Assembly (NCBI GenBank): GCA_002068325.1 | Contig: MVZH01000001.1 | Coordinates: forward strand, 1 to 60,335 | DNA length: 60,335 nt | Source: Lentisphaerae bacterium ADurb.BinA184 | GTDB lineage: Bacteria; Verrucomicrobiota; Lentisphaeria; Oligosphaerales; MVZH01 | Direction: 5' to 3' | Shown here: piece by piece, positions 2,157 to 39,246 of the stretch | How positions within the stretch are numbered: position 1 is the stretch's first letter | Layout: each line of letters opens with the position of its first letter | Made by a program: the position numbers and the translations under genes | Notes under the pieces: generated by a model | The model's input: only the letters and a program-made list of their open reading frames with translations | What the model was told of the DNA's origin: nothing | Databases searched by the model: none

Positions 2157-2165
2157 GTGGCGCCT

Positions 2166-7502: not shown

Positions 7503-7511
7503 GCCGCGGCG

Positions 7512-9323: not shown

Positions 9324-9337
9324 GCGGCGGGCGCCAC

Positions 9338-9585
9338 CCTGATTTGTCTACCACCGAGGACACAGAGTTCACAGAGGGCTTTGCGCTTGCGTTGGCGCGG
9401 ACCCCCCGCCAATGCAGGCGCAAAGCCAATTCCCTCTCTGTGGTCTCTGTGCTCTCTGTGGTTGACGGCAACAACGGTAACCCTTCATCGTCCCGGAAGA
9501 GGTCAGGCCATGGCAGACGGGCCACATCCCAGCCTGCCGGCAGTCTGGCGCCCGTCGCCGAGTTGGGGTCGGGATCGAATCGCCC
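9338..9585 (+). repeat. dispersed intergenic element, copy 2 (nested hairpin 9350-9462, inner stem-loop 9377-9427)
   Basis: Aligns with 1902-2156. It is also located in a divergent intergenic region. Confidence 0.85.
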
Positions 9586-9805
9586 GATCTTGCAGCAGAC
9601 GGCGATCTCCCGGCGTCGCCCTTGCCCCGCCCCGGTCTGGCAGCAATGTACCCGTCGTTCGTCGGAACGCAGGAGGGATCCCTGCGAAAGCGACATGCGG
9701 CGCGGCAGGCCCGTCACGCCGCAGACCTCCACTTTCCACGCTCAACTTTCCACCCCGCCCCGCCGCCAGGTGAATCCGTCACCACCGCGAACCGTTGCGG
9801 CAGGT

Positions 9806-9834
9806 TTGCCGGGCGGCGTTTGGCCCCGTATATT
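9806..9834 (+). promoter_or_regulatory. sigma70-like promoter candidate for the 9878 gene and probably the giant gene
   Basis: TTGCCG (9806-9811), an exact 17-nt spacer, then TATATT (9829-9834). ATG 9878 lies 44 nt downstream and has a GAGG 8 nt before it. Confidence 0.4.
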
Positions 9835-9877
9835 CTGAGTGTTGCCTATGGTCTGTTCTGGGAACGAGGTCGCGGGC

Positions 9878-11176: not shown

Positions 11177-11215
11177 CTGTGATAGAGTCTGTCCGGTAAA
11201 GACAGGTGCATCGCC

Positions 11216-11290
11216 GTGGCCAGCGATCAACAACGTCGGCGCTTCGAGCTGGAGCGGCTCGAACCGCGCGTCCTCCTGGATGGCGCGGGC
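11216..11290 (+). other. N-terminal R-rich LEPRVLL motif (MASDQQRRRFELERLEPRVLLDGAG)
   Basis: Read directly from the translation. No hydrophobic h-region follows. Confidence 0.8.
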
Positions 11291-14200
11291 GTGACGCCGT
11301 TGCCGGACGTCGAGGTTGCCGCGCCGGCCCCGGACGCGGCGGTGGTTGCTGAGGCCACGGACGCCGACCTCACGGCCCGGCCGGAATCGCTGGGCGACCT
11401 CTACAACCCCGGTGCGCAGCTCGACGACCTCTTCGCCGTGGCCACCGAACCGACCGATGCCCAGGCCCAGGACAGGACGCCGGCGCCCGCGGGCGCGCGT
11501 GATGCGCAGGCCGACCTGGCCTTTGTCGGCAACCTCAGTGTGTCGCCCGCGGACATCGAGCCCGGCGGCGTGGTCAGCGTCTGGTACCAGGCAAAGAACA
11601 TCGGTACGGCGGCGACCGACGCCTCGGGCTGGTACGACCAGTTCTACCTCTCCGCGGATGATCAGTGGGACAGCGCCGACACCTGGCTGGGCTACTGGTG
11701 GCGCTGGACCGGCCTGGCCGCCGGCGCCAGCTATTCCAGCCCCGGCGCCAGCCTGACCCTCCCGACGGATGCGCCGCCGGGGCCGATGTTCGTGCTCGCG
11801 CGGCTGGATGCCCTGGGCCAGGCGAGTGAAAGCAACGAGGCGAACAACGTCGCCGCCAGGGCGGTCACCATCCTCTCGACCACCGGCAGCACCGTCAACC
11901 TCGTCGCCTCGACGACGGTCACCGACCCAATCCCGGTCGCCGCCGGCGGCGAGGTCTCTTTCGATTTCACGGTGACCAATGCGGGCACCGGGACGAGCGG
12001 GTCCTATTGGTATGACGAAGTACGCCTCTCGGACGATGCGGTGTTCGATCCGGCCGAGGATGATGGAATCAGCGAACTGTGGCCCGGCGCCCTGCCTCTG
12101 GGGCTCGACGGGTTCTACACGACCCCCGTCACCGTTCGGCTCCCGGCCGATGTGACGCCGGGCATCCACTACCTCCTGGTTCGCGCGGACGCGAGCGACT
12201 ACCAGCCCGAGTCCGACGAGACGGACAACATCGCGGTGGTGCCCGTCTCTGTGTGGCTGCCCGACGTCAATCTGGCGATCGTCGGGCTGCCGACGGTTGA
12301 TCCAGCCAGCGCAGGCGTCGGGGACACGGTCACCGTCCGCTACTCGATCACCAACGCCGGCACGGCGGCGACCACGGCCGAACCGTGGTGGGACTTCGTC
12401 TACCTGTCCACCGACCCGGTTGGCGACTGGGGGGATCGCCAGTTGGCCCAGGTGCAGCAGTCCGCCCCGCTGGAGCCCGACGCAACGCGTGACGTCGAAC
12501 AGACCTTCGCGGTGCCCTCCGGCGTGCCGTGCGGGCCGCTCTACGTGGTCGTAAAGGTCAATGGAGGCTTGAACCAGCCCGAGACGGACTGGACGGACAA
12601 CGCGGGGGCGAGTGATTTCACGCTGGTCGGGCCGGACGTGGATTTGCAGCCGACGATCACCCAGGCGCCGCCGGCCGAGATCACGCTGGGCACCATGTTC
12701 CGGCTGAAGTGGACGGTGACCAACGCCGGCACGGCGGCGACCACGGCGACGTCCTGGTACGACTACATCTACTTCTCGACTGACGAGGTCTATGACGCGG
12801 CCGACACCCAGATCACCCGGTCGAAGAACCCGTCGGGGCTGGCGGGCGGCGCCAGCTACCTGAAGGATCTGTCGGTCTCGACGCCGAGCGGGGTTGGGGG
12901 CCCCGGCTACATCCTGATCGTCAGCGACCGCGGCTACGCCCAGGCGGAGTCCGACGAGGGCAACAACACGGTGGCCGCGCCGACCACGCTGATCGGGGCG
13001 AACCTCGTAGCCGCCGACCTTGTGGCGCCCCCGGTGGGCGACTGGTCGCAGACCATCGAGGTCAGCTACCGCGTCACCAACACCGGTACGGCGGCCGTGG
13101 CCGGATCGTGGACCGACAACGTCTACCTGATCACCGAGGCGACGCCGGGGGAGGTCCACAGCGTCGGGCAGTTCACCCGCAGTGACCCGCTGGCGCCCGG
13201 GGAGTGGATCGAGTACACCAGCCCGGTCACCCTCTCGACCGAGTACCTGGGATCGGTGCAGCTGGTCGTCAATACGGATTCCTTCCGCACGGTCACGGAA
13301 CTCGACGAGGACGACAACCAGTCGGCCCCCGTTCCCCTTGAGATCCGTGCCCCCAACCTGACGATGCGCCCGCCGGGCTCGCCGCCGGCGACGCTGGTCG
13401 TGGGCAGTACGGTCACACTCGAGTGGCAGGTTGAGAACACGGGCACGGCGGCGACCGGCGGCGCCTGGCGCGACGAGGTGTATTTCTCGCGGGACGCGGG
13501 GCTGGGCGGCGAGAGCGACTACCTGGTGTGGGGCGTCGAGCGGCCGGCCGGGGGCGCCCTCGTCCCGGGCGCGGTGGACAGCGTCTCGGCGACGTTCCAG
13601 CTGCTTGGGATACCGACCGGGACTGGGTACTTGATTTGCGTCACCGACGCGCGGGCGACACAGATCGAGCTGAACGAGACGGACAACGCCCAGGCATTCC
13701 CGGTGACGGTCCAGTCGGCCGAGCTGGCGGCCGCCTCTTTCACCCTGGCCGACGAGACGCTGCACGCCGGATCCGACGTGACGGTCGGGTGGACGGTGCA
13801 GAACCTCGGCGACGCCGCCCCGCCCACAGATTGGATCGACACCATCATCATCGAGAACCTGACCGCGGGCACGACCCTCGCCACGATCCCGGTTCCCTAC
13901 TCGCTGGCCGTCGAGGGCGCCATCCCTCCCGGCGGCAGCCGCGACCGCTCGGTGCAGATACACATCCCCGCCGCCTCGCCGTGGGTCGGCGACCTCCGCG
14001 TGACCGTGCGCGTGAACGGCGTGCCCGACGGCGCCGGGGGCTACGCCCGCGCCTTTGACGAGACCGATGCCGCCGGCGTGGTCTACGGCAACAACGCGCA
14101 GACCCTGACGCGCGAGTGCACGCCCCCGCCCTTCTACGTTGACCTGCGCGAGGGAGCGGTGCAGGCGACGCCCTCGCCCGCCTACCAGGGCCAGGGCGTG

Positions 14201-17200
14201 ACGCTCTCGTGGACCCTGAGCAACGCCGGCAACCTCGACCTCGACCGCCCCTTCGACGAGTTCGTCCGCGTGGTCAACACGACGACCGGCGCGACGCTCC
14301 TCGAGCAAGTCGTGCCCTACGATCCCGCCGTCGCCGGCGCGCTCGCCGCCGGGGGATCGCTGCAGCGGCAACTCGAGTTTGCACTGCCGGCCGGCGCCGA
14401 CGGCGTCGGGGGGATGACGGTGACGGTGACCGCCGACCGTGACGCGGGCGGCGCCGGAACCATCGAAGAGTATTACCCCGATGTGGACGCAGAGGCCAAC
14501 AACGCCGCCTCGACCACCTTCACGGCCCTGGCCCTGCCGCCGGCCGACCTCGCCGTGACCGCGCTCTCGGTGGTCGCCCATGAGGGACGCACCACGCCGA
14601 GAAAGGCGGACGTGAGCTGGACGGTCAGCAACGTCGGCATGGAGGACGCGGCCAAGCTCTGGTATGACCTGATCCTGCTCAGCGCCAACGCCGTCGCCGG
14701 CGATGCCGACGACATCGAGGTGGACTGGTTCCAGCAGGCGGCCGGTCTCGAGGCGGGCAAGTCAGTCGTGCAAACCGAGACGGTCTGGCTTCCCGACGAC
14801 CTCGACGGGACGTACTACTTCTTCGTGGTCGCCGACGCCGAGGCGGAGCTTGCCGACCCCGACCGCTCGAACAACACCTCGGCGCCGTTCGCCTTCGCCC
14901 TGTTCACCGCCCACGCCGACCTCAACGCACTCTCCGTCACCGCCCCGGCCACCGGCGCCAGCGGCCAGCCGGTCGAACTCACGTGGACGGTGCGCAACGA
15001 CGGCAACAGCCCCAACAACGACTCGTGGTACGACGCCTTCTACGTGACCGCAGGCGAGGCCTACTCGAATGCCCTCTACATGGGGTCGGCGCGCAACGAT
15101 GTCACCCTGGCGGTTGGCGAGACCCACGAGTTCACCGCCAGTCTCGAGCTTCCCGACGGAATCTCGGGCACGTACTATGTCTGGGTGCTGGTCAACCGCT
15201 GGGACTGGGTGGACGAACTTGGCAAGACCGGCAACAACCTGCGGCGGGCGACGGATCCGATAACGGTCAGCCTGACCCCGGCCCCCGATCTCGAGGTGGT
15301 CAGCGTCACCGCCCCGGCCTACGCCAATCGCGGCGAGAAGATGACGGTCAGCTGGGAGGTCGTCAACAACGGCCCAGGCGTCGTCGCCGAGGGGAGTTGG
15401 CACGACCTTGTGTACGCCGTCCCCGTCGGCGGGACGCTCGCCCGCGACGGCATCGAGCTGTCCTACCAGTACGGGAACGGCGACCCGCCGTTGCCGGACG
15501 GCGGCCGCTACACCCTGTCGGCGCAGTTCTACCTGCCGCAGCCAAACGCCCTGCCCGACGGCGACTACACCATCTACGTCGTGGCCGACGGCGACGAGGA
15601 CGTCTACGAGGCCGGCATCGAGGCGAACAACGCGGTGCCCGCCGGGCATCTCACCGGGATCGGCTGGGCCGAGCTCGGGGCGACGGTGGTGGCGGCCCCG
15701 GCCGAGGCGACGTCGTACACCACGATCCACGCAACCTTCGAGGTGCAGAGCCACGGCGGCGCGGGCGCGCAGGCCCCCTGGGTGGACCGCGCCTACGCGA
15801 GCCCGCGCGGCGATGCGCTGATCCTCTCGCAGTCCCAGCGGCTTGCGGAGTTCGCAATCGCCGGGCCGTTGCCCCCCGGCAGTTCCTACCAGCGCGAAGT
15901 TGCCTGGGAGATTCCGCTGACCGCGCAGGGCACGTGGTACATCTGGTACGTCACCGATGCCGACAACGCGGTGCCCGAGTACGGACCCGGCACCCCGGAG
16001 AGTCGGCCGAATGAGGTGGCCGCCCCGGTCGCCGTCACGCTCTGGCCCTATGCCGATCTGGCCGTGACCGCGCTGGACGCGCCGGCCCCCGTCTGCGGCG
16101 AGCCGCCCGTGTTCACGCTCTCGTGGACGGTGGGCAACCAGGGGACAGGCCGCGGCATCACCGAGGCGTGGACCGACCGCGTCTACATCTCGCCCCGACC
16201 GGCCGGCGAGTATTCCCTGCACTGGACGACGTTCGACTTCCCGCACAGCGGTGGACTCGACGCCGGTGCCAGCTACACACGCACCGAGACGATCACGCTG
16301 CCGGACGGTTTCTCCCTCGACGCACGGTACTACTTGTACGTCGTCACCGACGTCAGCGACGACGTGTTCGAGAACGCCTCCGAGGCCAACAACACCGCGG
16401 CCCTGCCCGAGCCCTTCGACGTGTACCGCGCGCCTTGGTGGGACTTGGAGGTCACCGACGTCCAGGCCCCCGCGACCGCCGGCAACGGCGAGACCATCAG
16501 CGTCTCGTGGACGGTCGAGAACCGTGGCACCGCCCTCACGGACAAGGCGTTCTGGTACGATCACGCGGACCTGTACGAGCGCCACACCGACGGCCAGGGC
16601 AACCCGTACTACACCCAGGTCGACCTCAACGTCGGCTACCGCGAGCTGCTGGCCTCGGTCCTGCACTCGGGGGCGCTCCAGCCCGGCGGGCAGTACACAG
16701 TCACCGCGACCATGCAGATCCCTTGGGGCATTGCCGGCGAGTTCTACATCGGGGTCGAGTGCACCCACTGGGAGTACATCAACGACGGGGACAGGTGGTT
16801 CTACCGGCCGATCACCATCGAGGAGCGCCCGGCCCCCGACCTGGCGGTGACCGCGGTCACGGTGCCGCACGACGCGCTGGTCGGCGAGTGGGTGGACGTC
16901 ACGTGGACGGTCACCAACCTCGGGGAGGCGACCGCCATCCCCTCGTGGCGCGACGGCGTGCAGTTCATCCACCCCGACGCGCCGCCGAGTTCCTGGCCGA
17001 CGTGGCTGGACCGGTTCGACTATGAGCAGCCCCTGGGGCCGGGGCTGTCCTACACGCGCACCGAACGCATCCGCCTGCCCGAGACCTACAGCGGCCTGGG
17101 CCGGCTCAATCCGGGCGACTACCGCCTGGCCATCCGCCTGGACATCAACGGTGCCGTCTACGAGGCCGACGAAAGCAACAACGACAGCCGCAACAACCCG

Positions 17201-35200: not shown

Positions 35201-38200
35201 GCAGTCACCGACACCCAGCCCGGCGCCGCCGGCCTGGACTCCGACGGCTGGATCGGCGCCAGCCACACCTACGGCGACAACCGCGCCGCCGGCGAACCCT
35301 ACACGGCCCAGCTGACCGTCACCGACGACGACGGCGGCCGCGCCACGGTCGCGATCACCATCCGCGTCGCCAACGTCGAACCCACCCTCCGCCCCACCGC
35401 CAACCTGACGGTCAACGAGGGCGCGGTGCTGACCATGCCCGACATCGCGTTCGAGGATCCCGGTTTCGCCAGCACCGAGACTTGGTCCTACACGATCGCC
35501 TGGGGCGACGGGACGACCGCCGAAGGCGCGGTGCTCGACTGCCTGCGCGGCCGGGCCGGCACGCCGTCGCTGGGCCGCTTCGCCGGCGACCTCGGCAAGG
35601 TCTATGCCGACGACGGTAACTACGTGGTTGACGTCACCGTGAGCGACCACGACGGCGGCGAAGCCACCGCGCAGTTCACGGTGACGGTGCGCAACGTCGC
35701 CCCCGACCTCACCGTGCCGGCCGACACGCTCACGGTCGCGAAATGCACCTACCTCGACTTGGCCGGGATGCTGACCTTCGACGATCCCGGCTTCGGCGAC
35801 AGCGAGACCTTTACCTTCTCGGTCGAGTGGGGTGACGGCACGGCGCCCGCATCCGGCGACGTCACCGACCTGACCCCCGGCGCCCCGCACGTCAAGACCC
35901 ACGGCCGGCTGAACCTGCGACACGCCTGGACAGCCTCACGGCCGGCGGGCGAATTCTACACGGTGACGGTGACCGTGACCGACGACGACGGCGACACGGA
36001 CACGGGCGTCTTCCAGGTTGAAGTCAGGAACGTCCCGCCGGTGCTGGCGCTGCTGCCGGATCTGCTCGCCGCCACCGCCGGTATGCCGTTCAGCGTGGTG
36101 GATTTCGGCCGCTTCACCGACAGCGCCTGCGAGCCGGCCCTTACCGCCACCATTGACTGGGGCGACGGCAGCGTCTCGGGGCCGTTCGCCGCGACGGTCG
36201 ACTGGCGCGGCGGAGTCGGCGAGGGCCTCCGGGGCACGTTTGATGGAACCCACACCTACGCCGCCGAAGGCCTCTACACGGTTGCGGTCACCCTCAGCGA
36301 CGGCGAGGCGACGGTCACACAGCACGCCTTGGCGGCAGTCTCGGGCACGGCGATCACCGCCCCCGTGATGTTGGGGTACAGCCCGGTTCTCGACTTGGCC
36401 TGCGACCCGCTGTCCGGCACGCTCTTCGCCGTGACCTCGATGCAGATCCTGCGGCTCGATGCCGGCGACGGCACCACCGTCGAACCGCTCGCGCCTCTGC
36501 CCGACGGACTTGCGGAGTTCGCAGGTCTGGCGTGGATTGACGGCGCGCTCTCGCTCGGCGGCACGCCGGTGCCGTCGGGCAGTCTGCTCCTGGGCACGGG
36601 CGGCAAGGTCTATGCGCTCGAACCGTCCCGCGGCGCCGAGATTGCCCGCGTCGCTCTCGCCGCGCCGGCCAGCCCGGCCGGGATCGCCGTGATGGGCGGC
36701 ACGCTCATGGTGCTGGGCAGCGACGGCGATGTCTACCGGGTTGATCCTGAAGACGGCCATGTCGTCGCCCGCTTCACCCCCGCCGGCGCGCGGGCCGGGG
36801 AAGGCGACGTGGCCGTCGCCCCGGACAGCGGCGGTCTGCTCATCGTCTCCGAGGCCGGCGGCGAGCTGCGCCGCGTGGATCCCGCGGACGGCACGATTGC
36901 CGGCGAGTATGCCCTCACCCTGTTCGGACTGCCCGCCAACCCCACGGGGATCGCCTTCGCGGCGGCGCCCCGCCTCGTCTTCGTGGACCGCAGCGGCGCG
37001 GTGCGCAGCCTGACTCTCGCCGCCGAGGACGGTCCGTCAGGCCGCACCACCGTGGTCTCGCCATTCTTGGCGGGAGCTATGCAGAGCACAGACGCAGACC
37101 TCTCTTCAAGAACCACCCTCGTCAACGGCGACTTCGCGGTTGCGGACCCCGCAAATCCGGCCTTCGGCTGGATGACGCGCGGCAGCGTGGCCGTCGAGGC
37201 CGGCGCCGCCGTGCTGACCGAGGACGCCCAGTTCCACTCGCAGCTTGCGCAGACGTTTGTGCTGCCGGGCGGCCCCGTCGGCCTGCGATTCACCGTCACA
37301 CTCCGCCAGCTCGGCGGTGCCGTGGACACCCGCGCCGGCGACGCCTTCGAAGTGGCGCTGCTGACCACCGATGGCCTGCTGCCTCTTGCCGGTACGGCCG
37401 CCGGGCTCACGCTCTGCGACGCCCTGATCAACGTGCAGCCCGACGGGCGCCTGTTCTTCGCCCCGCGGGTGACGATCCCCGGACTCGACGCGTCAGGGGG
37501 AACGCTGGGCCGCGAGACGGCGTTCACCGCCACCGTCCGCCTCGACGGGCTGCCGGCCGGCGTCGCCGTCACGGTCTTCTTCGACCTGCTGGGCTTCGGC
37601 GCGGAGGAGGCCGAGGTGGCCGTCACGGACGTGGCCGTGATCCCGCTGGACGACATCTTCGGCCCGGTGGTGACCGACGTGATCGTCAACGGCGGCGCCG
37701 GCCAACGCTCGATGGTGAGCCGCCTCGACATCGTGTTCAGCGAGGACGTCGGTCAGACGCTCTCGGCCTCCGACATCCTCCTGACCCGCATCGAGACCGG
37801 CGTCGCGCTGCCCGCCGCCGACCTCGCCTTCGTGTACGACGCCGCCATACACACGGCGACCTGCACCTTCCCCAGCCTGCTCGCCGGCAGCCTCGACGAC
37901 GGCACCTTCCGCCTCGAACTCAAGGCCGCCGACATCACCGACACCCTCGGCAATCCCCTCGACGGCAACGGCGACGGCTGGAACGGCGACGACTACGCCT
38001 CCGACCTCTTCCGCTTCTTCGGCGACGGCGACGGCGACCACGATGTTGATGTCCGCGACGCCACCGCCCTCGCCCCCGCGAACCTCGCAACCGCCGCCAG
38101 CCAGAACTACGACCCGCGCTTTGACTACGACGGCGACGGCGACGTGGATTTCCTCGACCTCCGCCGCTTCCACACCAACTACAACGCCAGCCGCACTCGG

Positions 38201-38557
38201 GATATCCCCGCCCAGCCCGAGCCCCCGCGGGAGGCCGCCGCCGCAGCGCTCCCGCGTGAGACGGGCGACGGCGCTCCGACTACCGTGGCGGCCCCCGCCG
38301 CCGTGGGAGAGCCTTCGGTGATGACGGCGGACACACCCCGCGCCGTTTCGACGGGGAGTGCGCCGGGCAACGGCTCCCCCGCCGCCGTCACGCCGGCGCA
38401 GGCCGTGCGGGTTCCTGCGACGCCGGCCCAGCCGTGGCGCACGGCGGGCTTCGACTGGCTGACCGACTGCGGACGGGGCAGGCCCGGTGTCCACGGAGTC
38501 GCCGAGGAATTTCTCTGGCCGCAGAGGATGCGGGGCCGAGCGGGGGGATCGCGTTAG
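11216..38557 (+). CDS. giant (9,113 aa) multidomain surface/adhesin-like protein
   Basis: Continuous ORF in the track. GTG 11216 is the first canonical start after the in-frame TAG at 11183-11185, with AGGTG 7 nt upstream. The sense frame shows coherent tandem domain signatures from end to end (see sub-features). Stop TAG is at 38555-38557. Confidence 0.9.
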   Translation: MASDQQRRRFELERLEPRVLLDGAGVTPLPDVEVAAPAPDAAVVAEATDADLTARPESLGDLYNPGAQLDDLFAVATEPTDAQAQDRTPAPAGARDAQADLAFVGNLSVSPADIEPGGVVSVWYQAKNIGTAATDASGWYDQFYLSADDQWDSADTWLGYWWRWTGLAAGASYSSPGASLTLPTDAPPGPMFVLARLDALGQASESNEANNVAARAVTILSTTGSTVNLVASTTVTDPIPVAAGGEVSFDFTVTNAGTGTSGSYWYDEVRLSDDAVFDPAEDDGISELWPGALPLGLDGFYTTPVTVRLPADVTPGIHYLLVRADASDYQPESDETDNIAVVPVSVWLPDVNLAIVGLPTVDPASAGVGDTVTVRYSITNAGTAATTAEPWWDFVYLSTDPVGDWGDRQLAQVQQSAPLEPDATRDVEQTFAVPSGVPCGPLYVVVKVNGGLNQPETDWTDNAGASDFTLVGPDVDLQPTITQAPPAEITLGTMFRLKWTVTNAGTAATTATSWYDYIYFSTDEVYDAADTQITRSKNPSGLAGGASYLKDLSVSTPSGVGGPGYILIVSDRGYAQAESDEGNNTVAAPTTLIGANLVAADLVAPPVGDWSQTIEVSYRVTNTGTAAVAGSWTDNVYLITEATPGEVHSVGQFTRSDPLAPGEWIEYTSPVTLSTEYLGSVQLVVNTDSFRTVTELDEDDNQSAPVPLEIRAPNLTMRPPGSPPATLVVGSTVTLEWQVENTGTAATGGAWRDEVYFSRDAGLGGESDYLVWGVERPAGGALVPGAVDSVSATFQLLGIPTGTGYLICVTDARATQIELNETDNAQAFPVTVQSAELAAASFTLADETLHAGSDVTVGWTVQNLGDAAPPTDWIDTIIIENLTAGTTLATIPVPYSLAVEGAIPPGGSRDRSVQIHIPAASPWVGDLRVTVRVNGVPDGAGGYARAFDETDAAGVVYGNNAQTLTRECTPPPFYVDLREGAVQATPSPAYQGQGVTLSWTLSNAGNLDLDRPFDEFVRVVNTTTGATLLEQVVPYDPAVAGALAAGGSLQRQLEFALPAGADGVGGMTVTVTADRDAGGAGTIEEYYPDVDAEANNAASTTFTALALPPADLAVTALSVVAHEGRTTPRKADVSWTVSNVGMEDAAKLWYDLILLSANAVAGDADDIEVDWFQQAAGLEAGKSVVQTETVWLPDDLDGTYYFFVVADAEAELADPDRSNNTSAPFAFALFTAHADLNALSVTAPATGASGQPVELTWTVRNDGNSPNNDSWYDAFYVTAGEAYSNALYMGSARNDVTLAVGETHEFTASLELPDGISGTYYVWVLVNRWDWVDELGKTGNNLRRATDPITVSLTPAPDLEVVSVTAPAYANRGEKMTVSWEVVNNGPGVVAEGSWHDLVYAVPVGGTLARDGIELSYQYGNGDPPLPDGGRYTLSAQFYLPQPNALPDGDYTIYVVADGDEDVYEAGIEANNAVPAGHLTGIGWAELGATVVAAPAEATSYTTIHATFEVQSHGGAGAQAPWVDRAYASPRGDALILSQSQRLAEFAIAGPLPPGSSYQREVAWEIPLTAQGTWYIWYVTDADNAVPEYGPGTPESRPNEVAAPVAVTLWPYADLAVTALDAPAPVCGEPPVFTLSWTVGNQGTGRGITEAWTDRVYISPRPAGEYSLHWTTFDFPHSGGLDAGASYTRTETITLPDGFSLDARYYLYVVTDVSDDVFENASEANNTAALPEPFDVYRAPWWDLEVTDVQAPATAGNGETISVSWTVENRGTALTDKAFWYDHADLYERHTDGQGNPYYTQVDLNVGYRELLASVLHSGALQPGGQYTVTATMQIPWGIAGEFYIGVECTHWEYINDGDRWFYRPITIEERPAPDLAVTAVTVPHDALVGEWVDVTWTVTNLGEATAIPSWRDGVQFIHPDAPPSSWPTWLDRFDYEQPLGPGLSYTRTERIRLPETYSGLGRLNPGDYRLAIRLDINGAVYEADESNNDSRNNPAFDTTIHLDLPDRPDLRVAQATAPDSVTAGATFAVEFDVINQGSAAALGDWDDAVYLSTDAEWGYDDLLLGRFPNQAALNVGESYRTLTGSFTMPLSFRGEGFLILRTDDESVIEEYPNEDNNVLVRPIEAIPLPPPDLVVSDVVAPTQAFENRSIQVSFTVTNRGPGPTVSEYWTDTVWLTVMPTSPLLLKNPEGWDVPPEAKRYFLLGSASHTGSLAPGESYRATLTVTLPEHLAGERFITPYTDTYGREFEDTQSDWINPDDPNTPDNNNFKARPISVMLRPAADLVVTAIVPDATGDCTHPFTVTWTVTNLGNAPTDRTRWTDLVWITDDPDLEYHGGGTGQLFDPDRVHEGALEPGASYTVTRTFDLAPDDHAHYVLVGTGYDTWQENGSYGSPYEGPQIESNPAWQNNVSVAATVVTPVASDLVVSTVEVAPAAFSGEALTVRWTVTNLGADVWDGGYHRGGWSDTIYLSQSPVFGAAGSGTNTTLGEYRRPVRLNHGASYQQQVTVALPGGIGGDYYIHVVADSPDGFVSYLDPDDPLGEGYVVAARDGGIVYEGGWIEPEVNGGTERVLDPRELNNANTAPLHITRAEIDLVMTAVVLPAGPLLGGQTVDIEYTVENQGLRDWDAYSLRPVDAEYWYDRFYLSADATLDFDDRCLGTAFLPVLFLPAGGSYTGTVRLTIPNDVEGELHLIGFTDSNLYGNLWPNAGGLGWEAYPSRVFCRQDEFDREFNNTIALPVTVVHVPMPDLQVTALDIPERVTAGQAFTVTWIVSNLGGDTTAGQASWGERIYLSRDALLELDADRQPRTLSALSAARPSALAAGASYTLTQTFEAPLDLVGEYYVIVITDPIVSPRNQPEGQVLEGGFEYNNTRASAQPLVIEQPPPSDLVVTQITVPATARVGDPITVSWTVRNDGENEAAARWTDAVYLSKDAVWDVGDALIGRADFPGLVRNAKIDYTLQPGETYAATLTAALTAAAPGSYRIIVRTDNAGYVYEDPDDANNATPSADTVAIAVDELVPGVPLDVTLARGGDRVYQIVVAEGETLRVRLTATDPNAANELFLRYGDVPNAILYDAVYTGGLAASQTLTVGDTRPGTYLLLVRNQAATSQTLAATLQADLLPLTIDDVEVDQGGDARYVTVTITGAGFKDGAQVKLVRPGIEEREAVGSRVLRGVTIQATFDLTGAVHGLYDLVVTNPGGEQAVVPYRFLVERALEPSVVVGLGGPYAVPFYTTGRFAFSIRNPGNVDLPYVSFTVAVPELGIVDGFYGRYLHSTTTVGGAPEVEGVPWAELDALANQGDGLLMAPGYITGLAAGATTGATLWTEIWPDLVPLVAQGMMIVPPPPEFEYFVVAAATPMTAAEFLAEQRAEAEVLRLAILEDTAAPEPLKSLASDADTFAGAYLLALEQSGVLRSEDLPTELRDAPAMVSLLSVLAAGVLAGPAGETLIAEGDLTAFFTQLRAWYGHDADSLYRTDFHPDDPDWTGYAEDPTMGVERIVLPNLDDLGPGLSADTALLAFRIWAHLSNSTGRHFLPEPMPLNIEAYLAMTASANRTARMDGPVGAGLEQFLPTGWPLPFTVSFENPATAVDTANEIRIVSEIDDSLGLRTFTLGDLQIGDVAVHLPAGRGYFQGDFDFTDERGFVLRVSAGMDVQTRIATWLVQAIDPATGEVLQDRNAGLLPPEDGTGAGGGFVSYSIEPLPTAATGDAVTAQARVFVGDRSPEETNTLTYALDTVAPVTQLTVTPSPADANELHLHWLASDDAGGSGVAAVSVYVSVDGGAWEAADLVDDGSGSGGVFVGETGRAYEFLALATDAAGNNEQAGPGVVVPNQPEPNLGSLPEVQTGSPSSDLGEAPAPSYEPSNSPLFAELEAGIPAAATGATPSEYAAVLAPLTAEAFATGIPSSSAGIGPLAIVELADESVLVSGGPSRSSLYRFTRFGGAAEAPFAELPYPVYDLALDADGRLWAATGGGPLLWLDAATGSVVNAYGDGVTQSVEIEPATGRLFVSMADGIAVFDPERATFTMVSGTRVGSLAFSPAGELWAALWPERGGVVVIGEDGSPTLKLEYDQAIDSLAFGQPGTDLADLLFVTTNGAGLSGAGGALIVVELRTLRSVVAAGGGTRGDIVIVTRDGRVLVSQSHQVDVLRPLFAPHVQSINPPDQVIVALPFTTLAITFDTDMNAGPATDAGSILNPDNYWVYGETLGPATVTAIAYDAATRTVQLTLAPLEPDVYQVRIRAAVASAAGLPMGEDYASSFTAASDFSSQVSMQLLNTRYDRRLAAITYDVQVTNIGDFDLRPPLMLVLTPDVFFGGEPADATGPDANGCWLLDLGAALDGTALEPGASTVLKPVSLNVPGGVATDYAHGVLALPYPNERPVIASAPVTAATAGAPYAYAVTAEDPDGIHLSFVLFEAPSGMTLDPATGLLAWSPDADSPSEAPVVLRAYDRRGGHAEQAFTVVVAGGNHVPQITLPAGPVQASEGVALTLPISVADADGDAISLGADNLPGGAVLDVAARVIRWTPGYDQAGTYKNVMVHASDGLRQASASLTIVVEPRNQPPQVTPIADVVVREGDRVSLFVRADDADGDPLRFHCPILPGGATLHPTTGLFEWTPGYTQAGQFSMTFAASDGHSIGTTTVAFTILNANGAPVFDDIGVFTVEEGQPLAFRAFAFDPDNPDFIPPDPTGDGAYTDLLGTDPTVIVAADGLPAGAGFDPTALYFDWTPAYTDAGTHVVTFTATDDGGGTGTPAVVQTTCTITVTNRNRAPEIAEFANLSLPVGATLAVPVAATDADGNPVVLAVDGLPAFAAFTDHGDGTGTLDLAPADGQRGNYALTVVATDNGDLEGRRAALSDSFTFIVTVEHPNESPVLSFTGDKAVAVGDTLSFLLYATDPDEDELTFSATGLPAGATLSPQVIYGHALVTWSPAEADLGSHAVTFRVTDSGNGNPALIAFDELSLQIVVRATNAAPTIEPAAPLEVTEEHLLEFAVVAADPDGDALTFSSTSLPPGATLDPATGVLRWTPNRQQAGNYTAVNITASDGTRSTPATFAIRVLNQNQAPRLAYRPALAIREGEAFSTTLAASDYDGDALSFSTAAPLPAGATLDPATGTFAWTPHSEQAGVYEVGLVVSDPGGMTDTMTVRFEVQNVNRAPVLVVSDHSVAIGTTLAFTLQATDADLGTVLTFAAAALPGGATLDPATGAFAWTPGPGQAGDFVVQFSVSDGIATTTLPMLVRAAVMPAPPAVFVSLTPSFPVTPGAAVSIRPLAASVADLATVRLFVDGEEVALDATGRAVIAAGAVGTHAVEAVVTDLDGLVGRGTATLCVRDPASNAPPSVSFDASLTGAVLTDATPLLATVEDTDLLEWRLEVTPLGRDTVVFAGSGRTPLAHAAAATLDPASLTNGFYTLRLTATDVTSRSASAQAVIEIAGTAKPGRCRRTDTDLTVAFAGGELALGHRFDSIAKDMPGTLGHGWSLAGCEFNVEGDTVELPFHDGTRLFVTFPDGTRAAFRFAPSEHSVPGLTWWTPAWVAESAVPAGWSLASVATLLTRGGTRFYDLRTGQPYQPAQFAADTRAWFTLTAPDGTRYDLAADGALAAVTRPGAGPLAFSGGAIDDGRGTAVSVPRDDAGRIMSLAATDGRRVTYEYDDAGDLVRVHASWVGASTLLGYDPADPHRLLLVANPDGTGESITDDGGHDTLPLAANLGPAADFAGHPVTGTIAAGELDRYTFVIRASEVLSSVTGTVHLGVEVGALSGGLVPAVPAILGMMPVWTLAEAGRSVALFALTTPGLFALDVTAATGNGDYRLALFVAGDANEDGRVDGTDAQILATAMGTHTGDPGYVPAADANRDGAIARHDADLLYAGFGFAANRPPVTQDSAAMTHTDLELRWAMTSLAADAEGDTVVFQVTGATHGTANLSADGTTVIFLPEPGYSGTASFSYVASDGYGASAPATLTVTVSDAPLIALDITTRRPRIDVGQGVTLLAVGDFADQAGVWLPPSYLAFTSHDPAVASVSSEGVLLGLTAGSGAVSITARGLAATTAFLVGDTATVTDAALAIFGIVVYPEAVTLPAAGGSRQILVGQDTANDTPDMHTAAAGTRYFLSVVGVVTVTPDGVVQAAGEGEAVVTVVYRMAEARVRVRVVQPIASGGSVGAAGGVVSTADGLSVALAPGALGEATAVSIEWATEGDLPMAAPGGASHNPVAFFDLDVGGAVMDQPAQFAVPLTGVPAGARVVFYRAAEFPAADGTMSQIWMEVDAGEVGDDGVARTTSPPYPGPYRGGSYCIDYYNVYSGMPCTGYVYLAGAHMIAGATMIAVAFNPINPWDGTGGAVDLIPGGFGTGLDIAQGLTSFARGVLMLHLPYGASTFELRLLQPEGGLTVLQSQVEIVPGGPSTFETVFVNDFDLDEPAPAIGSMRVELESGEPLLIITGERFLYAEDEAPLVEGHRLGTAAGDLAVWFEPATATTSSEDLRWAGEIVAFTDLGGGRGELRVRVPRHVALGLANVTVARRASRRSAGPDGELVWDHSRFYLSAPAQLRGDGRYVFFCSDAWGDEIAVITGLATPGGTGANELVATIPVGDPAVPFECPEDTAATGDNSRVYVTLRYSGAVAVVDAVALQQLDAYADDADDPATLGLNVIDLRAVVPGAEPYEVAIGPDSRYAYVGDYRQPLVYMLDIDPASPTYHTVVRTLNLGTDLAANGCRDLAFDSDGRYLFVAAPALERFAPLANYWGQPGTIMIYDLADQDAVAGGALEPPTQVLRVGRSPVGLSATTRADLMVYTDDEYDPGGFAILRKVGDLWEYHEHVGLQLGSQYDSLDVNNAVDVVVTADLRYAFIAAANTYIRGVYSHDPYLNPYLPAGGNVGIIRDPFLLFPEMQGRKNLVAATRSLPFSYTESLALSPDGAYLYVAYSGLRSVMVYDVAAMIAELESSLDVPYDQGYVLDVVAVNDLVDGYGTGTNPLIDVRADYRPIYDGPGGLPIFQVPGGDLNPRRPIVAGPNAHGLSSQQSFLRLLAPGVGTIAPNVPEFIWDLGGRVAASTLYVSVYPGGQGLFPDDVDPAHEHRIYEYTVAAGEATRVTLPDDLPLTRGQRYWWGIEVRLGDGTVHRKWQWFEVAPATVSGRYSSVTVITHDFAFSLGDQLPEWVGDLAKTVAQAGGGGSIMIYDRDSGEFRVANRVVPESGKPVILLPNWIKESDITDSGFAEAAADAFFAAMVRLDQQLGGELLSAPLHFVGHGRGAVVNSEIVQRLGVYFDGVGDIHMTTLDPHDFEQKALNLPVGEAIQLLEDIAGMLAGGPAGGLAVKIRRGLASLVGDTKLLSRILGVALDTIKWGDFKDPRVQTWSNVGFHDNYYQTLGAQEQPSQVEFTLTHNGRPIASADFDLELNGLAGFYSDLLSLQLPVPAVLAELLDINPVFVNFGINAPHERVWRYYAGTAGLNLAEFEVTGDDGQVLLRRAADVYDAETGEPLAMFEEFTDDDAWYVPPEMDAILPSTPWEGIGLGWAWSVLGGVTERRPAGATAPRVEVDDAEAGPVASVFNGDFSAGTENLRSRFPFAHEMPGWALHGGRGLVLDFGLATVDITDLFVWNLDPKGLLSKVMSAEDTAATVWMWDNLWQPLTEAILDEVLASGLDAIPAEWRGGAEYLMSLLGGEGVTAEEMVRAAREAIADNWWHDSQALFMGGEALTDRLYTQWDQLPDYFWLSGACPELLNALSTLDLMDRLTDFNAITHNRLYIPPDAHCLKFDVYAPLLVSPDVTIEVLFQSDDVAPMAEPLSVSLQFSLFNARTYSVPVPAEFRGKVGTFTLRVQGLDEPIPDFLAGKILGDTVSQMFFLDNIAFTDTCPPPGDEINEAPRLRADPMTAHENQTASFVFSFTDPDAQHWTWSVDFGDGTPPVSGTADAPGTVTVPHVFADDSPTGRFTAVVTLSDGVSETSASVENTVLNVAPTLDPVAEIVLDEGETLTLGGDTAWHFTDPGFGPLEAWTWSIAWGDGTTDGGAVTDTQPGAAGLDSDGWIGASHTYGDNRAAGEPYTAQLTVTDDDGGRATVAITIRVANVEPTLRPTANLTVNEGAVLTMPDIAFEDPGFASTETWSYTIAWGDGTTAEGAVLDCLRGRAGTPSLGRFAGDLGKVYADDGNYVVDVTVSDHDGGEATAQFTVTVRNVAPDLTVPADTLTVAKCTYLDLAGMLTFDDPGFGDSETFTFSVEWGDGTAPASGDVTDLTPGAPHVKTHGRLNLRHAWTASRPAGEFYTVTVTVTDDDGDTDTGVFQVEVRNVPPVLALLPDLLAATAGMPFSVVDFGRFTDSACEPALTATIDWGDGSVSGPFAATVDWRGGVGEGLRGTFDGTHTYAAEGLYTVAVTLSDGEATVTQHALAAVSGTAITAPVMLGYSPVLDLACDPLSGTLFAVTSMQILRLDAGDGTTVEPLAPLPDGLAEFAGLAWIDGALSLGGTPVPSGSLLLGTGGKVYALEPSRGAEIARVALAAPASPAGIAVMGGTLMVLGSDGDVYRVDPEDGHVVARFTPAGARAGEGDVAVAPDSGGLLIVSEAGGELRRVDPADGTIAGEYALTLFGLPANPTGIAFAAAPRLVFVDRSGAVRSLTLAAEDGPSGRTTVVSPFLAGAMQSTDADLSSRTTLVNGDFAVADPANPAFGWMTRGSVAVEAGAAVLTEDAQFHSQLAQTFVLPGGPVGLRFTVTLRQLGGAVDTRAGDAFEVALLTTDGLLPLAGTAAGLTLCDALINVQPDGRLFFAPRVTIPGLDASGGTLGRETAFTATVRLDGLPAGVAVTVFFDLLGFGAEEAEVAVTDVAVIPLDDIFGPVVTDVIVNGGAGQRSMVSRLDIVFSEDVGQTLSASDILLTRIETGVALPAADLAFVYDAAIHTATCTFPSLLAGSLDDGTFRLELKAADITDTLGNPLDGNGDGWNGDDYASDLFRFFGDGDGDHDVDVRDATALAPANLATAASQNYDPRFDYDGDGDVDFLDLRRFHTNYNASRTRDIPAQPEPPREAAAAALPRETGDGAPTTVAAPAAVGEPSVMTADTPRAVSTGSAPGNGSPAAVTPAQAVRVPATPAQPWRTAGFDWLTDCGRGRPGVHGVAEEFLWPQRMRGRAGGSR
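11516..20263 (+). repeat. 22 tandem CARDB-like modules (aa 101-3016 of the giant protein)
   Basis: Each ~120-150-aa unit starts with (P)DLxV. Each has a core such as FRLKWTVTNAGTAATTATSWYDYIYFSTD or ITVSWTVRNDGENEAAARWTDAVYLSKD, and ends with an acidic ..E(S/T)(D/N)E.NN stretch. I counted 22 units by eye. Confidence 0.8.
20264..20856 (+). other. PPC (pre-peptidase C-terminal)-like module followed by an IPT/TIG-like module
   Basis: The PPC-like part reads DELVPGVPLDVTLARGGDRVYQIVVAEGETLRVRL...GTYLLLVRNQ. The TIG-like part reads YVTVTITGAGFKDGAQVKLV...LYDLVVTNPGGEQAVVPYRFLV. Confidence 0.5.
22944..23675 (+). other. beta-propeller-like region 1 (NHL/SMP-30-like blades)
   Basis: Repeated blade-like strings: VYDLALDADGRLWAATGGGPLLWLD, VEIEPATGRLFVSMADGIAVFD, SLAFSPAGELWAAL, IVIVTRDGRVLVSQ. 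Confidence 0.45.
24338..26945 (+). repeat. 9 tandem cadherin-like / putative-Ig (dystroglycan-type) modules of ~97 aa
   Basis: Each unit reads ..A.D.DGD.L(T/S)FS...LP.GATLDP.TG.F.WTP...QAG.Y.V...V.D and ends N..(A/P)P. For example, AADPDGDALTFSSTSLPPGATLDPATGVLRWTPNRQQAGNYTAVNITASDG. Confidence 0.7.
27530..28270 (+). other. short RHS/YD-repeat-like fragment
   Basis: TDLTVAFAGGELALGHRFDSIAKDMPGTLGHGWSL resembles the opening of Rhs-repeat regions. FTLTAPDGTRYDL and GRRVTYEYDDAGDLVRV are YD-type repeats. The fragment is only ~245 aa. Confidence 0.5.
28649..28815 (+). other. dockerin-like (duplicated EF-hand Ca-binding) module 1
   Basis: DANEDGRVDGTDAQILATAMG ... DANRDGAIARHDADLLYAGFG. Confidence 0.6.
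29096..29650 (+). other. two Big_2-like (bacterial Ig group 2) modules
   Basis: The first reads VTLLAVGDFADQAGVWLPPSYLAFTSHDPAVASVSSEGVLLGLTAGSGAVSITA. The second unit ends GEGEAVVTVVYRMAEARVRVRV. Confidence 0.55.
30838..32000 (+). other. beta-propeller-like region 2 (YVTN/lactonase-type blades)
   Basis: Blade-like strings: SRVYVTLRYSGAVAVVD, PYEVAIGPDSRYAYVGDYRQPLVYMLD, RDLAFDSDGRYLFVAAP, GTIMIYDL, LALSPDGAYLYVAYSGLRSVMVYD. Confidence 0.5.
32579..33280 (+). other. lipase-like alpha/beta-hydrolase fold with a Ser-less nucleophile elbow (GHGRG)
   Basis: Landmark order: KPVILLPNW ... LHFVGHGRGAVVNSEIVQRL ... DIHMTTLDPHDF ... VGFHDNYYQT. Codons GGG CAC GGG CGC GGG lie at 32912-32926. Confidence 0.45.
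34757..36345 (+). repeat. 5 tandem PKD-like modules (~105 aa each)
   Basis: Cores read WSVDFGDGT, WSIAWGDGT, YTIAWGDGT, FSVEWGDGT and ATIDWGDGS. Each is followed by ...Y.V.VTV(T/S)D.DG and an NV(A/E/P)P boundary. Confidence 0.75.
38021..38185 (+). other. dockerin-like module 2
   Basis: GDGDGDHDVDVRDATALAPANL ... DYDGDGDVDFLDLRRFHTNYN. Confidence 0.55.
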
Positions 38558-39246
38558 CCGTTCAGCTCGCGGCGGATGGCGCGGGCGGCCTCGGCCGGGC
38601 TCGGGGCCTTGAGGATGGGGCGGCCGACGACGATGTAGCTGGCGCCGGCGCGGGCGGCCTCGGCCGGGGTCATCACGCGCGCCTGGTCGTCGTGGGCGGC
38701 CCCGGCTGGCCGGATGCCGGGCACGACCAGCAGGAAGTCCGGACCGCAGGCCTGCCGCAGGGCCGCGATTTCGAGGGCGGAGCAGACGACGCCGGGGACG
38801 CCGGCCGCCTGGGCCAGGCGGGCGAGGCGGACGACCTGCTCCTCGGGGGAGGCGGTGATGCCAACGGCACGCAGCTCGGCGGCGTCCATGCTGGTCAGCA
38901 CAGTCACGCCGAGGACGATGAGGCCGGTTTCGCGGGCGGCGTCGGCAGCGGCCTTGAGCATGGCGCGGCCGCCGCTGGCGTGCACGTTGGTGATGTCGGC
39001 GCCCAGGCTGGCGGCGGAACGGACGGCCTGGGCCACGGTGTTGGGGATGTCGTGGAACTTGAGGTCGAGGAAGACGTGTTTGCCGGCGGCTTTCACGGTC
39101 TGCACGGCGGCCGGGCCGAAGCGGGTGAAGAGCTGTTTGCCGATCTTGTACCAGGTGACGGCATCGCCGAGGGTATGGACGACGGCGGCGGCCTCGTCCA
39201 GGGTAGCGACGTCGAGGGCGACGATGAGTTCAGTCCGGCTGGCCAT
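38554..39246 (-). CDS. pyrF: orotidine 5'-phosphate decarboxylase
   Basis: 230 aa with LIVALDV, WYKIGKQLF, HVFLDLKFHDIPNTV and IVVGRPI, the classic PyrF motifs. Confidence 0.95.
   Translation of the reverse strand: MASRTELIVALDVATLDEAAAVVHTLGDAVTWYKIGKQLFTRFGPAAVQTVKAAGKHVFLDLKFHDIPNTVAQAVRSAASLGADITNVHASGGRAMLKAAADAARETGLIVLGVTVLTSMDAAELRAVGITASPEEQVVRLARLAQAAGVPGVVCSALEIAALRQACGPDFLLVVPGIRPAGAAHDDQARVMTPAEAARAGASYIVVGRPILKAPSPAEAARAIRRELNG

Follow-up and report, generated by a model that had tools for sequence, protein, structure and literature searches.

What kind of protein is encoded by a bacterial open reading frame (ORF) more than 27 kb long? The question is raised by contig MVZH01000001.1 of Lentisphaerae bacterium ADurb.BinA184, of which we analyzed positions 1 to 60,335 (this whole stretch of 60,335 nt is the window referred to below). 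The ORF in question occupies positions 11216..38557 on the plus strand; it is 27,342 nt long, begins with GTG, comprises 9,113 codons and has a single stop at its 3' end. A preliminary description, made from the sequence alone, noted a 27.3-kb stop-free frame with coherent domains from end to end and read it as a mosaic surface protein of an architecture that could not be placed. We conclude that the ORF is a real, intact gene of a bacterium of the Planctomycetes-Verrucomicrobia-Chlamydiae (PVC) group from anaerobic-digester-type metagenomes, and that it encodes a new, divergent member of an existing, widespread and uncharacterized family whose homologues are already in RefSeq. As to function, we favor, with fair but by no means full confidence, an exported, calcium-binding, acidic, all-beta fiber that acts as an adhesin or scaffold.

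Whether so long a frame could arise by accident has to be settled first. The GC content of the 60-kb window is ~70%, and long spurious ORFs are common in DNA of such composition; antisense shadow ORFs of 2,209, 1,600 and 1,191 residues lie within the gene itself. Since the longest of these shadows at 70% GC reaches 2,209 residues, however, a frame of 9,113 residues is far beyond chance. GC at the first, second and third codon positions of the ORF is ~0.68, 0.50 and 0.91, uniformly across all 3-kb slices, which is the sense-frame signature of real coding sequence; the final ~340 nt, which encode a Pro/Ala tail, deviate from it (0.76/0.72/0.83). Frame, codon-position GC and the placement of curated domains in one frame agree with one another and with the earlier view of a single coherent ORF. 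The same 9,113-residue gene is called in NCBI record JAKJHD010000002.1, from metagenome-assembled genome (MAG) GCA_022704055.1, whose coordinates minus 13,035 give those of the window.

A frame of this size could also result from collapsed repeats or a chimeric join in the assembly, or belong to a decayed pseudogene. In favor of this, the sequence comes from a MAG contig, antisense ORFs do run to 2,209 residues, the last 340 nt are atypical in codon-position GC, and for the 3' 21 kb of the gene no independent assembly was found in a metagenome scan with a propeller segment and the Joint Genome Institute (JGI) contig described below. Even so, we hold an artifact in any of these forms to be extremely improbable. 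Tandem Repeats Finder detected no long-period DNA tandem arrays in the gene, and repeat collapse is implausible because no pair of internal repeats exceeds 53% amino acid identity in a tile-versus-tile self-BLAST. Window positions 693..13866 are matched at 99.985% identity by a contig of independent assembly (JGI 3300010429, Ga0116241_10003843), which extends to 17470; 23% of the ORF is thereby independently corroborated, and the first 6.25 kb of the gene are reproduced at 99.98% identity without a frameshift. Inside the giant gene the contig differs in only three respects: an in-frame 30-nt tandem duplication, one third-position single-nucleotide polymorphism, and a 10-N scaffold gap on account of which two genes were called by JGI. 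The duplication, at window positions 13837-13866, amounts to 10 residues (DTIIIENLTA) in CARDB module 7 of the JGI assembly (13145-13204 of fetched locus L098) and reflects either polymorphism in the population or a difference between the assemblies. Beyond the part covered by JGI, distant homologues align collinearly and without a break as far as residue ~7,566, which supports the frame; for the last ~1,500 residues the support is the coding signature and scattered homologous modules only. Taken with a third-position GC of ~0.91 throughout, curated domains in one frame from end to end, and an unbroken alignment of 6,300 residues with homologues from other phyla, this means that an artifact is already essentially refuted for residues 1-7566.

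The homologues also bear on whether the architecture is as singular as it first appeared. An 850-residue query (the homologue searches used queries of 711-850 residues) covering a region that the preliminary description had left as about 520 unassigned residues found matches down to E=1e-193, at 40-43% identity and 100% query coverage. Many database "proteins" of 600-1,500 residues with matches to the giant protein are in fact pieces of giant genes, produced by indel errors in nanopore-based assemblies. Because giant genes are split in this way, protein-level searches under-report full-length homologues. The idea that residues ~3000-4300 were a stand-alone protein of ~1,000-1,300 residues that had been fused in was rejected; the supposed proteins are frameshift-split pieces of giant genes from long-read assemblies. 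One 24-kb locus is collinear with residues ~900-6,900 of the window protein. A scan of one genome per species with a 711-residue block, which we call the signature block, returned 445 loci. The best 80 of these are 37-45% identical over the full 711 residues and, going by the record names, belong to Planctomycetota (36), Cyanobacteria (19, several on plasmids) and Proteobacteria (21, including Accumulibacter, Bradyrhizobium, Mesorhizobium and Burkholderiales), with single loci from Nitrospirota, Acidobacteriota, Verrucomicrobiota and a record labeled Frankia sp. RB7. In most of these 80 loci, fetched as 22-kb segments, an open frame spans the entire segment and is collinear with the window protein from residue ~100-1,300 to residue ~6,900-7,200; apparent ORF ends in draft loci are masked-N runs or frameshifts and hence uninformative. 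An exhaustive HMMER search gave 1,626 clusters at 50% identity with E<=1e-30, the best being 49% identical in the signature block.

Five full-length members come from cultured strains in RefSeq, all of them plasmid-borne and carrying generic names only: WP_255337275.1 of Mesorhizobium ciceri R30 (10,518 residues, "Ig-like domain-containing protein"), WP_042466302.1 of Anabaena cylindrica PCC 7122 (pANACY.01; 11,150 residues, "CARDB domain-containing protein"), WP_013334495.1 of Gloeothece verrucosa PCC 7822 (11,342 residues), WP_275890958.1 of Pseudosulfitobacter DSM 107133 (12,737 residues), and a protein of 12,948 residues from Undibacterium YM2. BLASTP aligns the window protein with those of Anabaena, Gloeothece and Mesorhizobium in single high-scoring segment pairs of 6,248-6,396 columns at 38-39% identity, spanning residues 117-6300, 117-6285 and 852-7010 of the window protein, respectively. 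Overall identity to the RefSeq giants is 31-39%, with a conservation peak of 40-52% between residues 2,750 and 5,250.

Collinearity extends to individual modules. From the thirteenth CARDB module onward, the best match of a module in a distant homologue is in most cases the module at the corresponding position, well ahead of any paralogue, and the nine cadherin-like modules are one-to-one orthologous in Anabaena and Mesorhizobium. Orthology among the N-terminal CARDB modules is ambiguous, and the length of that array varies among relatives; a fixed CARDB repeat number, which we had considered, therefore holds from CARDB-13 onward and not before. The family thus has a conserved, ordered core of ~7,000 residues, flanked by a variable leader and a variable C-terminal part of ~2,000 residues. 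Within the core a CARDB array is followed by a PPC module, a block with DUF7619, a propeller, Big_5 and a He_PIG/cadherin array, and then by a YD segment, a dockerin, Big_2, an unassigned block and a second propeller. Because ~7,000 of the 9,113 residues are collinear and ordered across homologues, the architecture is not an ad hoc mosaic. That word fits the C-terminal ~2,000 residues and not the protein as a whole, and several features remarked on in the preliminary description (unassigned stretches of about 520 and 400 residues, a YD fragment and the first dockerin) lie inside the conserved core. Nor is the architecture beyond placing, given a leader recognized by NF012209 and collinear RefSeq homologues of 10,518-12,948 residues; what stands of that claim is that no characterized homologue was found.

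The modules were called by tiled Pfam and NCBIfam scans against curated cutoffs, and the repeats were counted with a self-trained hidden Markov model (HMM). Curated thresholds were passed by CARDB, Big_5, the He_PIG/Big_9/Cadherin_4/5/tandem-95 group, RHS_repeat (once), Dockerin_1, PKD, PQQ_2, Reg_prop and LEPR-XLL. All features that follow lie on the plus strand of the window. After the leader come 22 CARDB-like Ig modules (residues 115-3005, 11558..20230; Pfam and self-trained HMM) and a first PPC-like module (residues 3036-3104, 20321..20527), which at 21.4 bits stays under the PF04151 cutoff of 25.9, whereas the orthologous segment of one homologue passes at 27.0. The signature block (residues 3120-3830, 20573..22705) consists of a TIG-like sandwich, a sandwich with a helical insert, a CnaA-like DUF7619 domain and a Fn3-like domain. 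It is followed by beta-propeller 1 (residues 3900-4145, 22913..23650; Reg_prop 23.4 bits against a cutoff of 20.4, with a weak SGL match), a Big_5 Ig module (residues 4152-4259, 23669..23992; PF13205 26-27 bits against 23.6) and nine He_PIG/cadherin-like/tandem-95 modules (residues 4387-5234, 24374..26917; Pfam, NCBIfam and self-trained HMM). In the YD/RHS segment (residues 5440-5700, 27533..28315) one repeat passes, with RHS_repeat at 29.4 bits against 22 and TIGR01643 at 21.2 against 15.8. Dockerin 1 (residues 5810-5867, 28643..28816) has two DxNxDG calcium loops, scores 35.5 bits against the Dockerin_1 cutoff of 22.9 and matches PDB 2y3n_B at E=1.8e-5. Cadherin-like module 10 and a Big_2-like pair share residues 5882-6145 (28859..29650; Big_9 52.7 bits, Big_2 21.5 against 22.8). 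The core closes with a conserved block at residues 6150-6545, to which no Pfam family matched, and a YVTN/lactonase-like propeller 2 at residues 6545-7000 (together 29663..32215), collinear with homologues at 30-43% identity; the matches of propeller 2 are weak (Lactonase 18.2 against 21.7, TIGR02276 17.2 against 27.85).

The C-terminal part begins with a lipase-like alpha/beta-hydrolase module (residues 7125-7530, 32588..33805; AlphaFold, Foldseek and homologue alignment), followed by jelly-roll 1 (the NGDF...FLDNIAF module; residues 7535-7840, 33818..34735), which has a helical insert and is related by Foldseek to CBM4, CBM6, CBM16 and MAM. Five PKD-like modules (residues 7862-8378, 34799..36349; Pfam and self-trained HMM) lead to a PQQ/BamB-like propeller 3 (residues 8380-8600, 36353..37015; PQQ_2 56.3 bits against 27.6) and to jelly-roll 2 (residues 8635-8810, 37118..37645), which has no Pfam match and is conserved at 34-41% identity in Anabaena, Gloeothece, Mesorhizobium, Stieleria and others. 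A Big_5-like "QRS" Ig module (residues 8817-8919) and dockerin-like module 2 (residues 8936-8983; together 37664..38164) are both sub-threshold (Big_5 18.1 against 23.6, Dockerin_1 16.9 against 22.9), the latter with one canonical DxDGDG loop. The protein ends in a Pro/Ala-rich low-complexity tail (residues 8990-9113, 38183..38554); similar Ala/Thr/Pro tails are found in relatives. The inventory drawn up in the preliminary description, and its surface or adhesin-type reading, hold up well against this. Its counts of 22 CARDB, nine plus one cadherin-like and five PKD modules are exactly those given by the self-trained HMM (for He_PIG/cadherin-like modules likewise 9+1), and both the "Ser-less" GHGRG elbow and the NGDF...FLDNIAF module lie where it had put them. 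Most of its modules are borne out by Pfam or NCBIfam; those that are sub-threshold or have no Pfam support are the TIG-like, both PPC and Big_2 modules, the YVTN propeller, the C-terminal dockerin and both jelly-rolls, among which structure models support the TIG-like module and jelly-roll 1.

What such a protein does can be approached through its folds, which are almost entirely Ig-like, propeller and jelly-roll. At ~958 kDa it is strongly acidic, with 1,167 Asp and Glu against 456 Arg and Lys and just 46 Lys. In an AlphaFold model (predicted local distance difference test, pLDDT, of 76) the signature block forms a string of beta-sandwiches with a single helical insert, and Foldseek matches it to integrin leg domains, alpha-2-macroglobulin MG domains and Gram-positive pilins, and also to Cna and AgI/II; no enzyme fold appeared in this analysis of residues 3120-3830. 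The DUF7619 domain (PF24595) scores 26.8 bits in the window protein, against a cutoff of 27, and 34-44 bits in homologues. DUF7619 has been described as a CnaA-like stalk domain of fibrillar adhesins with a predicted intramolecular isopeptide bond (PMC12617251). The triad expected for such a bond is Lys-Asp-Asn. An alignment of 26 signature-block sequences contains no invariant or >=90%-conserved Lys, and because a conserved Lys is absent from it we claim no isopeptide bond for the DUF7619 block of this family. For a fibrillar adhesin one looks for a stalk of tandem Ig-like modules, which is present (22 CARDB, 10 He_PIG/cadherin-like, 5 PKD, Big_5, Big_2 and TIG-like), and for a signal peptide with a surface anchor or sorting motif, which is absent; candidate ligand-binding domains are the propellers (Reg_prop 23.4 and PQQ_2 56.3 bits) and the jelly-rolls that resemble carbohydrate-binding modules (CBMs; Foldseek E~1e-3). 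We hypothesize that the Ig-like modules, some 45-50 sandwiches, would form a stalk of ~0.2 micrometer if extended (an estimate from typical domain lengths), that the three propellers, two CBM-like jelly-rolls and PPC modules would bind ligands, probably glycans or cell surfaces, and that the calcium-binding dockerin modules would provide protein docking.

The dockerins and jelly-rolls could be read differently, as parts of a cellulosome-like or matrix scaffold, at the surface or outside the cell, that captures glycans through CBM-like jelly-rolls, propellers and PPC modules and recruits partner proteins, or is recruited by them, through its dockerins, in the service of a polysaccharide-degrading lifestyle. 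Dockerin_1 is above threshold and a second dockerin-like module is present, Foldseek links jelly-roll 1 to CBM4, CBM6 and CBM16, and the neighbors include genes of the GH95-like, rhamnosidase and formylglycine-generating enzyme (FGE)-sulfatase types; Dockerin_1 has also been reported to be enriched in huge planctomycetal proteins (PMC11573180). A type I dockerin is there, but scans of all tiles with Pfam and NCBIfam found neither a cohesin nor a glycoside-hydrolase module, the neighborhood is conserved in no homologue, and the same core occurs in phototrophic cyanobacteria and rhizobia, whose lifestyles are very different. We therefore think a scaffold of this kind quite unlikely.

A second way of seeing the fiber starts from its variable ends, which in relatives carry enzymes. 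In the Anabaena protein a metzincin signature (HEFGHVLGLDH) is found at the N-terminal end, and the lipase-like module is followed by a DNA/RNA non-specific endonuclease (Endonuclease_NS, E=5e-35), five PKD modules, Calx-beta and a tail of beta-helix type; that of Mesorhizobium contains a metzincin (HEIGHVLGLPH) together with eleven additional cadherin-like modules. In the fiber as we picture it, the variable C-terminal part of the relatives would carry payloads, among them a DNA/RNA endonuclease, a metzincin protease and a Ser-containing lipase-like hydrolase. The window protein contains no metzincin, nuclease or Ser-lipase catalytic motif, and its one enzyme-like domain deserves a closer look. 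Residues ~7105-7565 represent a family that Pfam does not annotate, with homologues 27-41% identical. The AlphaFold model has a pLDDT of 85-93 in an alpha/beta core that Foldseek relates to thioesterases, lipases and cell-surface hydrolases, and its C-terminal part matches CBM4, CBM6, CBM16 and MAM jelly-rolls, all at weak E-values of ~1e-3. The earlier designation of a "Ser-less lipase-like fold" is thus supported by model and fold search. The elbow reads GHGRG, as against GHSRG, with Gly7235 (nt 32918-32920) at the position of the nucleophile, so that the Ser of the G-x-S-x-G motif expected of an alpha/beta-hydrolase enzyme is lacking, while the Asp (TTLDPHD, residue 7264) and the His (PHERV, residue 7423) are kept. 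Among 31 aligned lipase-like modules the elbow has Ser in 17 (GHSRG or GFSRG) and Gly in 12, including the window protein, whereas the TTLDPHD Asp is invariant and the PHxRV His nearly so. Giant homologues that bear the module (Anabaena and a Pirellulales MAG) retain the Ser, and in homologues too the jelly-roll follows it. Because its sole enzyme-like domain has Gly for the nucleophile Ser, the window protein is probably a purely binding or structural variant without a working enzyme.

The lipase-like module and jelly-roll also occur together as a cassette. Among cyanobacterial proteins of 800-1,200 residues this is often linked with a non-specific endonuclease for DNA/RNA (PF01223); the same joining is found inside the Anabaena giant protein at residues ~8551-9616, and ~40% of the sampled cassettes are without the nucleophile Ser and with Asp and His.

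These payloads invite the hypothesis that the core is a delivery fiber, part of a polymorphic effector or competition system that presents or delivers variable C-terminal, and sometimes N-terminal, enzymes to neighboring cells or prey, and that in the window protein the payload has decayed. The intact HExxHxxGxxH of the Peptidase_M10 domains, the endonuclease and the Ser-containing lipase-like modules of relatives would fit, as would the frequent fusion of the cassette to PF01223 nucleases, a YD segment within the core, the many plasmid copies, the patchy distribution among phyla and the multiple paralogues in several genomes. However, no recurring immunity-like small gene lies downstream at the RefSeq homologue loci, a single passing RHS repeat makes no Rhs shell, and the enzymes might just as well be used to scavenge nutrients. 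Moreover, the copy in the window has an open 27-kb frame with a strong coding signature and no intact catalytic motif; we argue that function is independent of the payload, because the frame is maintained despite that loss. For these reasons we regard payload delivery as unlikely. The narrower idea of an Rhs/YD polymorphic toxin was rejected: only one RHS/YD repeat passes (29.4 bits) in a segment of ~260 residues, and the Pfam and NCBIfam scans found no toxin domain.

An adhesive fiber has to leave the cell, and how this one might do so is suggested by its N-terminus. The whole protein contains no hydrophobic segment: no Kyte-Doolittle window of 19 residues exceeds 1.9, the N-terminal maximum is 0.88, and there is no classical signal peptide. 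It does begin with a LEPR-XLL leader (residues 10-31, FELERLEPRVLLDGAG; 11243..11308), the N-terminal LEPRxLL domain of ~24 residues defined by NF012209 (short name "LEPR-8K"), which scores 19.5 bits on a 1,000-residue tile and 21.3 on a 100-residue piece against a cutoff of 17 and is the sole such motif within the window. Leaders of this type are shared with Mesorhizobium (LEPRLLLSADF, 34 bits with NF012209) and Pseudosulfitobacter (FEPRVLLSADL), and in both of these, five genes come after the giant gene and are conserved at 40-54% identity between the two. They encode a DUF3467 protein; an adaptor of the resistance-nodulation-division (RND)/HlyD type; a GAF-HlyD adaptor; a 715-residue fusion of a PqqD-like domain, an HExxH/M50-type intramembrane protease and a HlyD domain; and a 653-residue truncated SecA paralogue (SecA_DEAD E=4e-101, preprotein cross-linking domain present). 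The PqqD and M50 matches are sub-threshold in this 715-residue copy and annotated in many homologues. The operon lies at 48597-55951 on the Mesorhizobium ciceri plasmid NZ_CP088148.1 (598-7952 of fetched locus L089), at 39969-46342 of locus L092, and in loci L094-L097. The 715-residue protein has at least 1,989 relatives, and in 4/4 further neighborhoods its gene stands directly downstream of a gene for 6,118-12,208 residues, beside GAF-HlyD and SecA-like genes; two of those four giants belong to the collinear family. In all six loci examined, a small sample, the giant gene is followed by DUF3467, GAF-HlyD, the 715-residue fusion and the SecA-like gene, with an LEPR-type leader wherever the N-terminus is known.

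Since leader and operon co-occur, we infer that LEPR-XLL is a leader recognized by the operon machinery, and that in the window protein it, rather than a classical signal peptide, probably directs export. A bolder hypothesis, which we think rather unlikely, is that LEPR-XLL marks an undescribed, dedicated export pathway for megadalton proteins, whose cargo is a horizontally mobile, module-conserved giant fiber with exchangeable payloads, and that the window protein is a payload-dead PVC member with its export genes elsewhere in the genome. In such a pathway the truncated SecA would be the motor, the PqqD/M50/HlyD fusion would recognize and cleave the leader, the GAF-HlyD and RND-type adaptors would form a periplasmic conduit, and DUF3467 would serve as a chaperone.

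Several observations weigh against an exported adhesive fiber, or at least against this way of exporting it. No experimental evidence on localization, adhesion or export of any family member was found in the literature searched. The giant protein has no LPXTG, PEP-CTERM, GlyGly-CTERM or type IX secretion signal, no transmembrane segment and no repeats-in-toxin (RTX) array, several of its binding-module calls are sub-threshold, and no cohesin partner is known. A tblastn search of the window with the five operon proteins returned nothing at E<=1e-6, and among the loci examined the operon was seen in proteobacterial relatives and in no PVC genome. The Anabaena, Gloeothece and Undibacterium homologues have neither leader nor operon; the route cannot therefore be universal. 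Finally, module order is strictly kept over ~7,000 residues across phyla, which is not usual among adhesins, as their repeat arrays normally grow, shrink and become homogenized. This hints at a function more specific than generic adhesion, and it is accounted for neither by the adhesin or scaffold fiber that we favor nor by the rival explanations.

Known giant surface proteins offer partial parallels. The type I-secreted giant RTX adhesins of the LapA, SiiE and MpIBP type are giant, acidic, calcium-binding, repeat-rich surface proteins of Gram-negative bacteria; the window protein resembles them in these properties, and HlyD-type adaptors stand beside some of its relatives. It differs in that it has no RTX nonapeptide array and no adjacent ABC exporter or TolC, and in that the ATPase of its relatives is a SecA paralogue. 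A type I-secreted RTX adhesin was rejected: there is a single isolated GGxGxD (residue 2512) and no HemolysinCabind match, and the flanking genes are pyrF, gcvH, lptF/G and citrate synthase. Fibrillar adhesins with isopeptide-type stalk domains (CnaA/CnaB and CLIPPER/DUF11/DUF7619; PMC12617251) are alike in being long tandem-Ig polypeptides with putative binding domains, but the giant protein has neither a signal peptide nor a known anchor, and its order is fixed across phyla instead of shuffled. Giant genes are a recognized feature of PVC bacteria, with roles only presumed (PMC12673574), and Big_9, Cadherin and Dockerin_1 have been reported to be enriched in planctomycetal proteins of huge size (PMC11573180). 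The Omnitrophota giants of the Archaeovorin and Dockerin types reach at least 30,000 residues and have C-terminal transmembrane anchors, SecA-like domains within the protein and adjoining loci resembling type II secretion systems or type IV pili (bioRxiv 10.1101/2023.11.21.568195). With these and the planctomycetal giants our protein shares a giant PVC gene, dockerin, Ig and CBM-like content, an inferred surface role and associated SecA-related functions; it shares neither the size of at least 30,000 residues, nor the transmembrane anchor, the in-protein SecA domain and the secretion- or pilus-like neighbors of the Omnitrophota proteins.

Its closest parallels are the RefSeq giants themselves, with which it has in common the module order over ~6,000-7,000 residues, the DUF7619 block, the first dockerin, the YD segment, jelly-roll 2 and the low-complexity tail. 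It is shorter, at 9,113 residues, and the relatives carry 900-3,400 extra N-terminal residues. It also has no metzincin or nuclease domain, a lipase-like module without Ser and no adjacent SecA-like operon, and its C-terminal order (five PKD modules, PQQ propeller, jelly-roll 2, QRS Ig module, dockerin 2) is distinct. Our searches of the literature on LEPR-XLL, giant CARDB proteins, DUF3467 and SecA/HlyD export of giant proteins found nothing relevant. Alone, the gene is one more giant surface-protein gene of a PVC bacterium, and the family-level observations are more useful: a family of proteins of 9-13 thousand residues keeps an ordered core of ~7,000 residues at ~40% identity across cyanobacteria, alpha- and betaproteobacteria, planctomycetes and other phyla, with many copies plasmid-borne, and a module order so strict is unexpected for generic adhesins and calls for explanation. 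The function of the family can be tested, because members occur in the cultivable and partly tractable Mesorhizobium ciceri, Anabaena cylindrica, Gloeothece and Stieleria. The leader, together with the operon of SecA paralogue, HlyD adaptors and PqqD-M50 fusion, likewise provides a testable hypothesis for exporting megadalton proteins without a signal peptide.

The surroundings of the gene are mixed. A sigma-70-like promoter match (TTGGCA-18-TAGAGT, TG-extended; 11159..11188, plus strand) lies 28 nt upstream of the GTG start; it is a match to consensus only, one found against 0.0 expected in shuffles. At the other end, 4 nt (38554-38557) are common to the stop of the giant gene and the 3' end of pyrF, which is convergent with it (38554..39246, minus strand). 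Upstream lies a gene of 445 residues (9839-11176, plus strand), or of 409 residues as called by JGI; its product has a signal-anchor-like N-terminus and a single Big_9/cadherin-like domain, which is 34% identical to cadherin-like module 10 of the giant protein (residues 5856-5966). The conserved synteny suggested for this pair was not borne out in any homologue, as the sole matches of the upstream gene are Big_9 domains inside other giant genes. Genes of polysaccharide-degradation type lie nearby (2126-7502, 42006-43166 and 52426-55329), namely a GH95-like enzyme, an FGE-sulfatase-type enzyme and an alpha-L-rhamnosidase, and among them is a secreted protein of 945 residues with a weak DUF6259 match. 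Housekeeping genes (pyrF, gcvH, lptF/G, citrate synthase and aroA) are interspersed around the giant gene. Lastly, a DDE_Tnp_1 transposase gene (~48983-50392, plus strand) is flanked by the CpXC/EPSP-synthase genes on one side and prmC on the other, and three independent assemblies have it at this same site.

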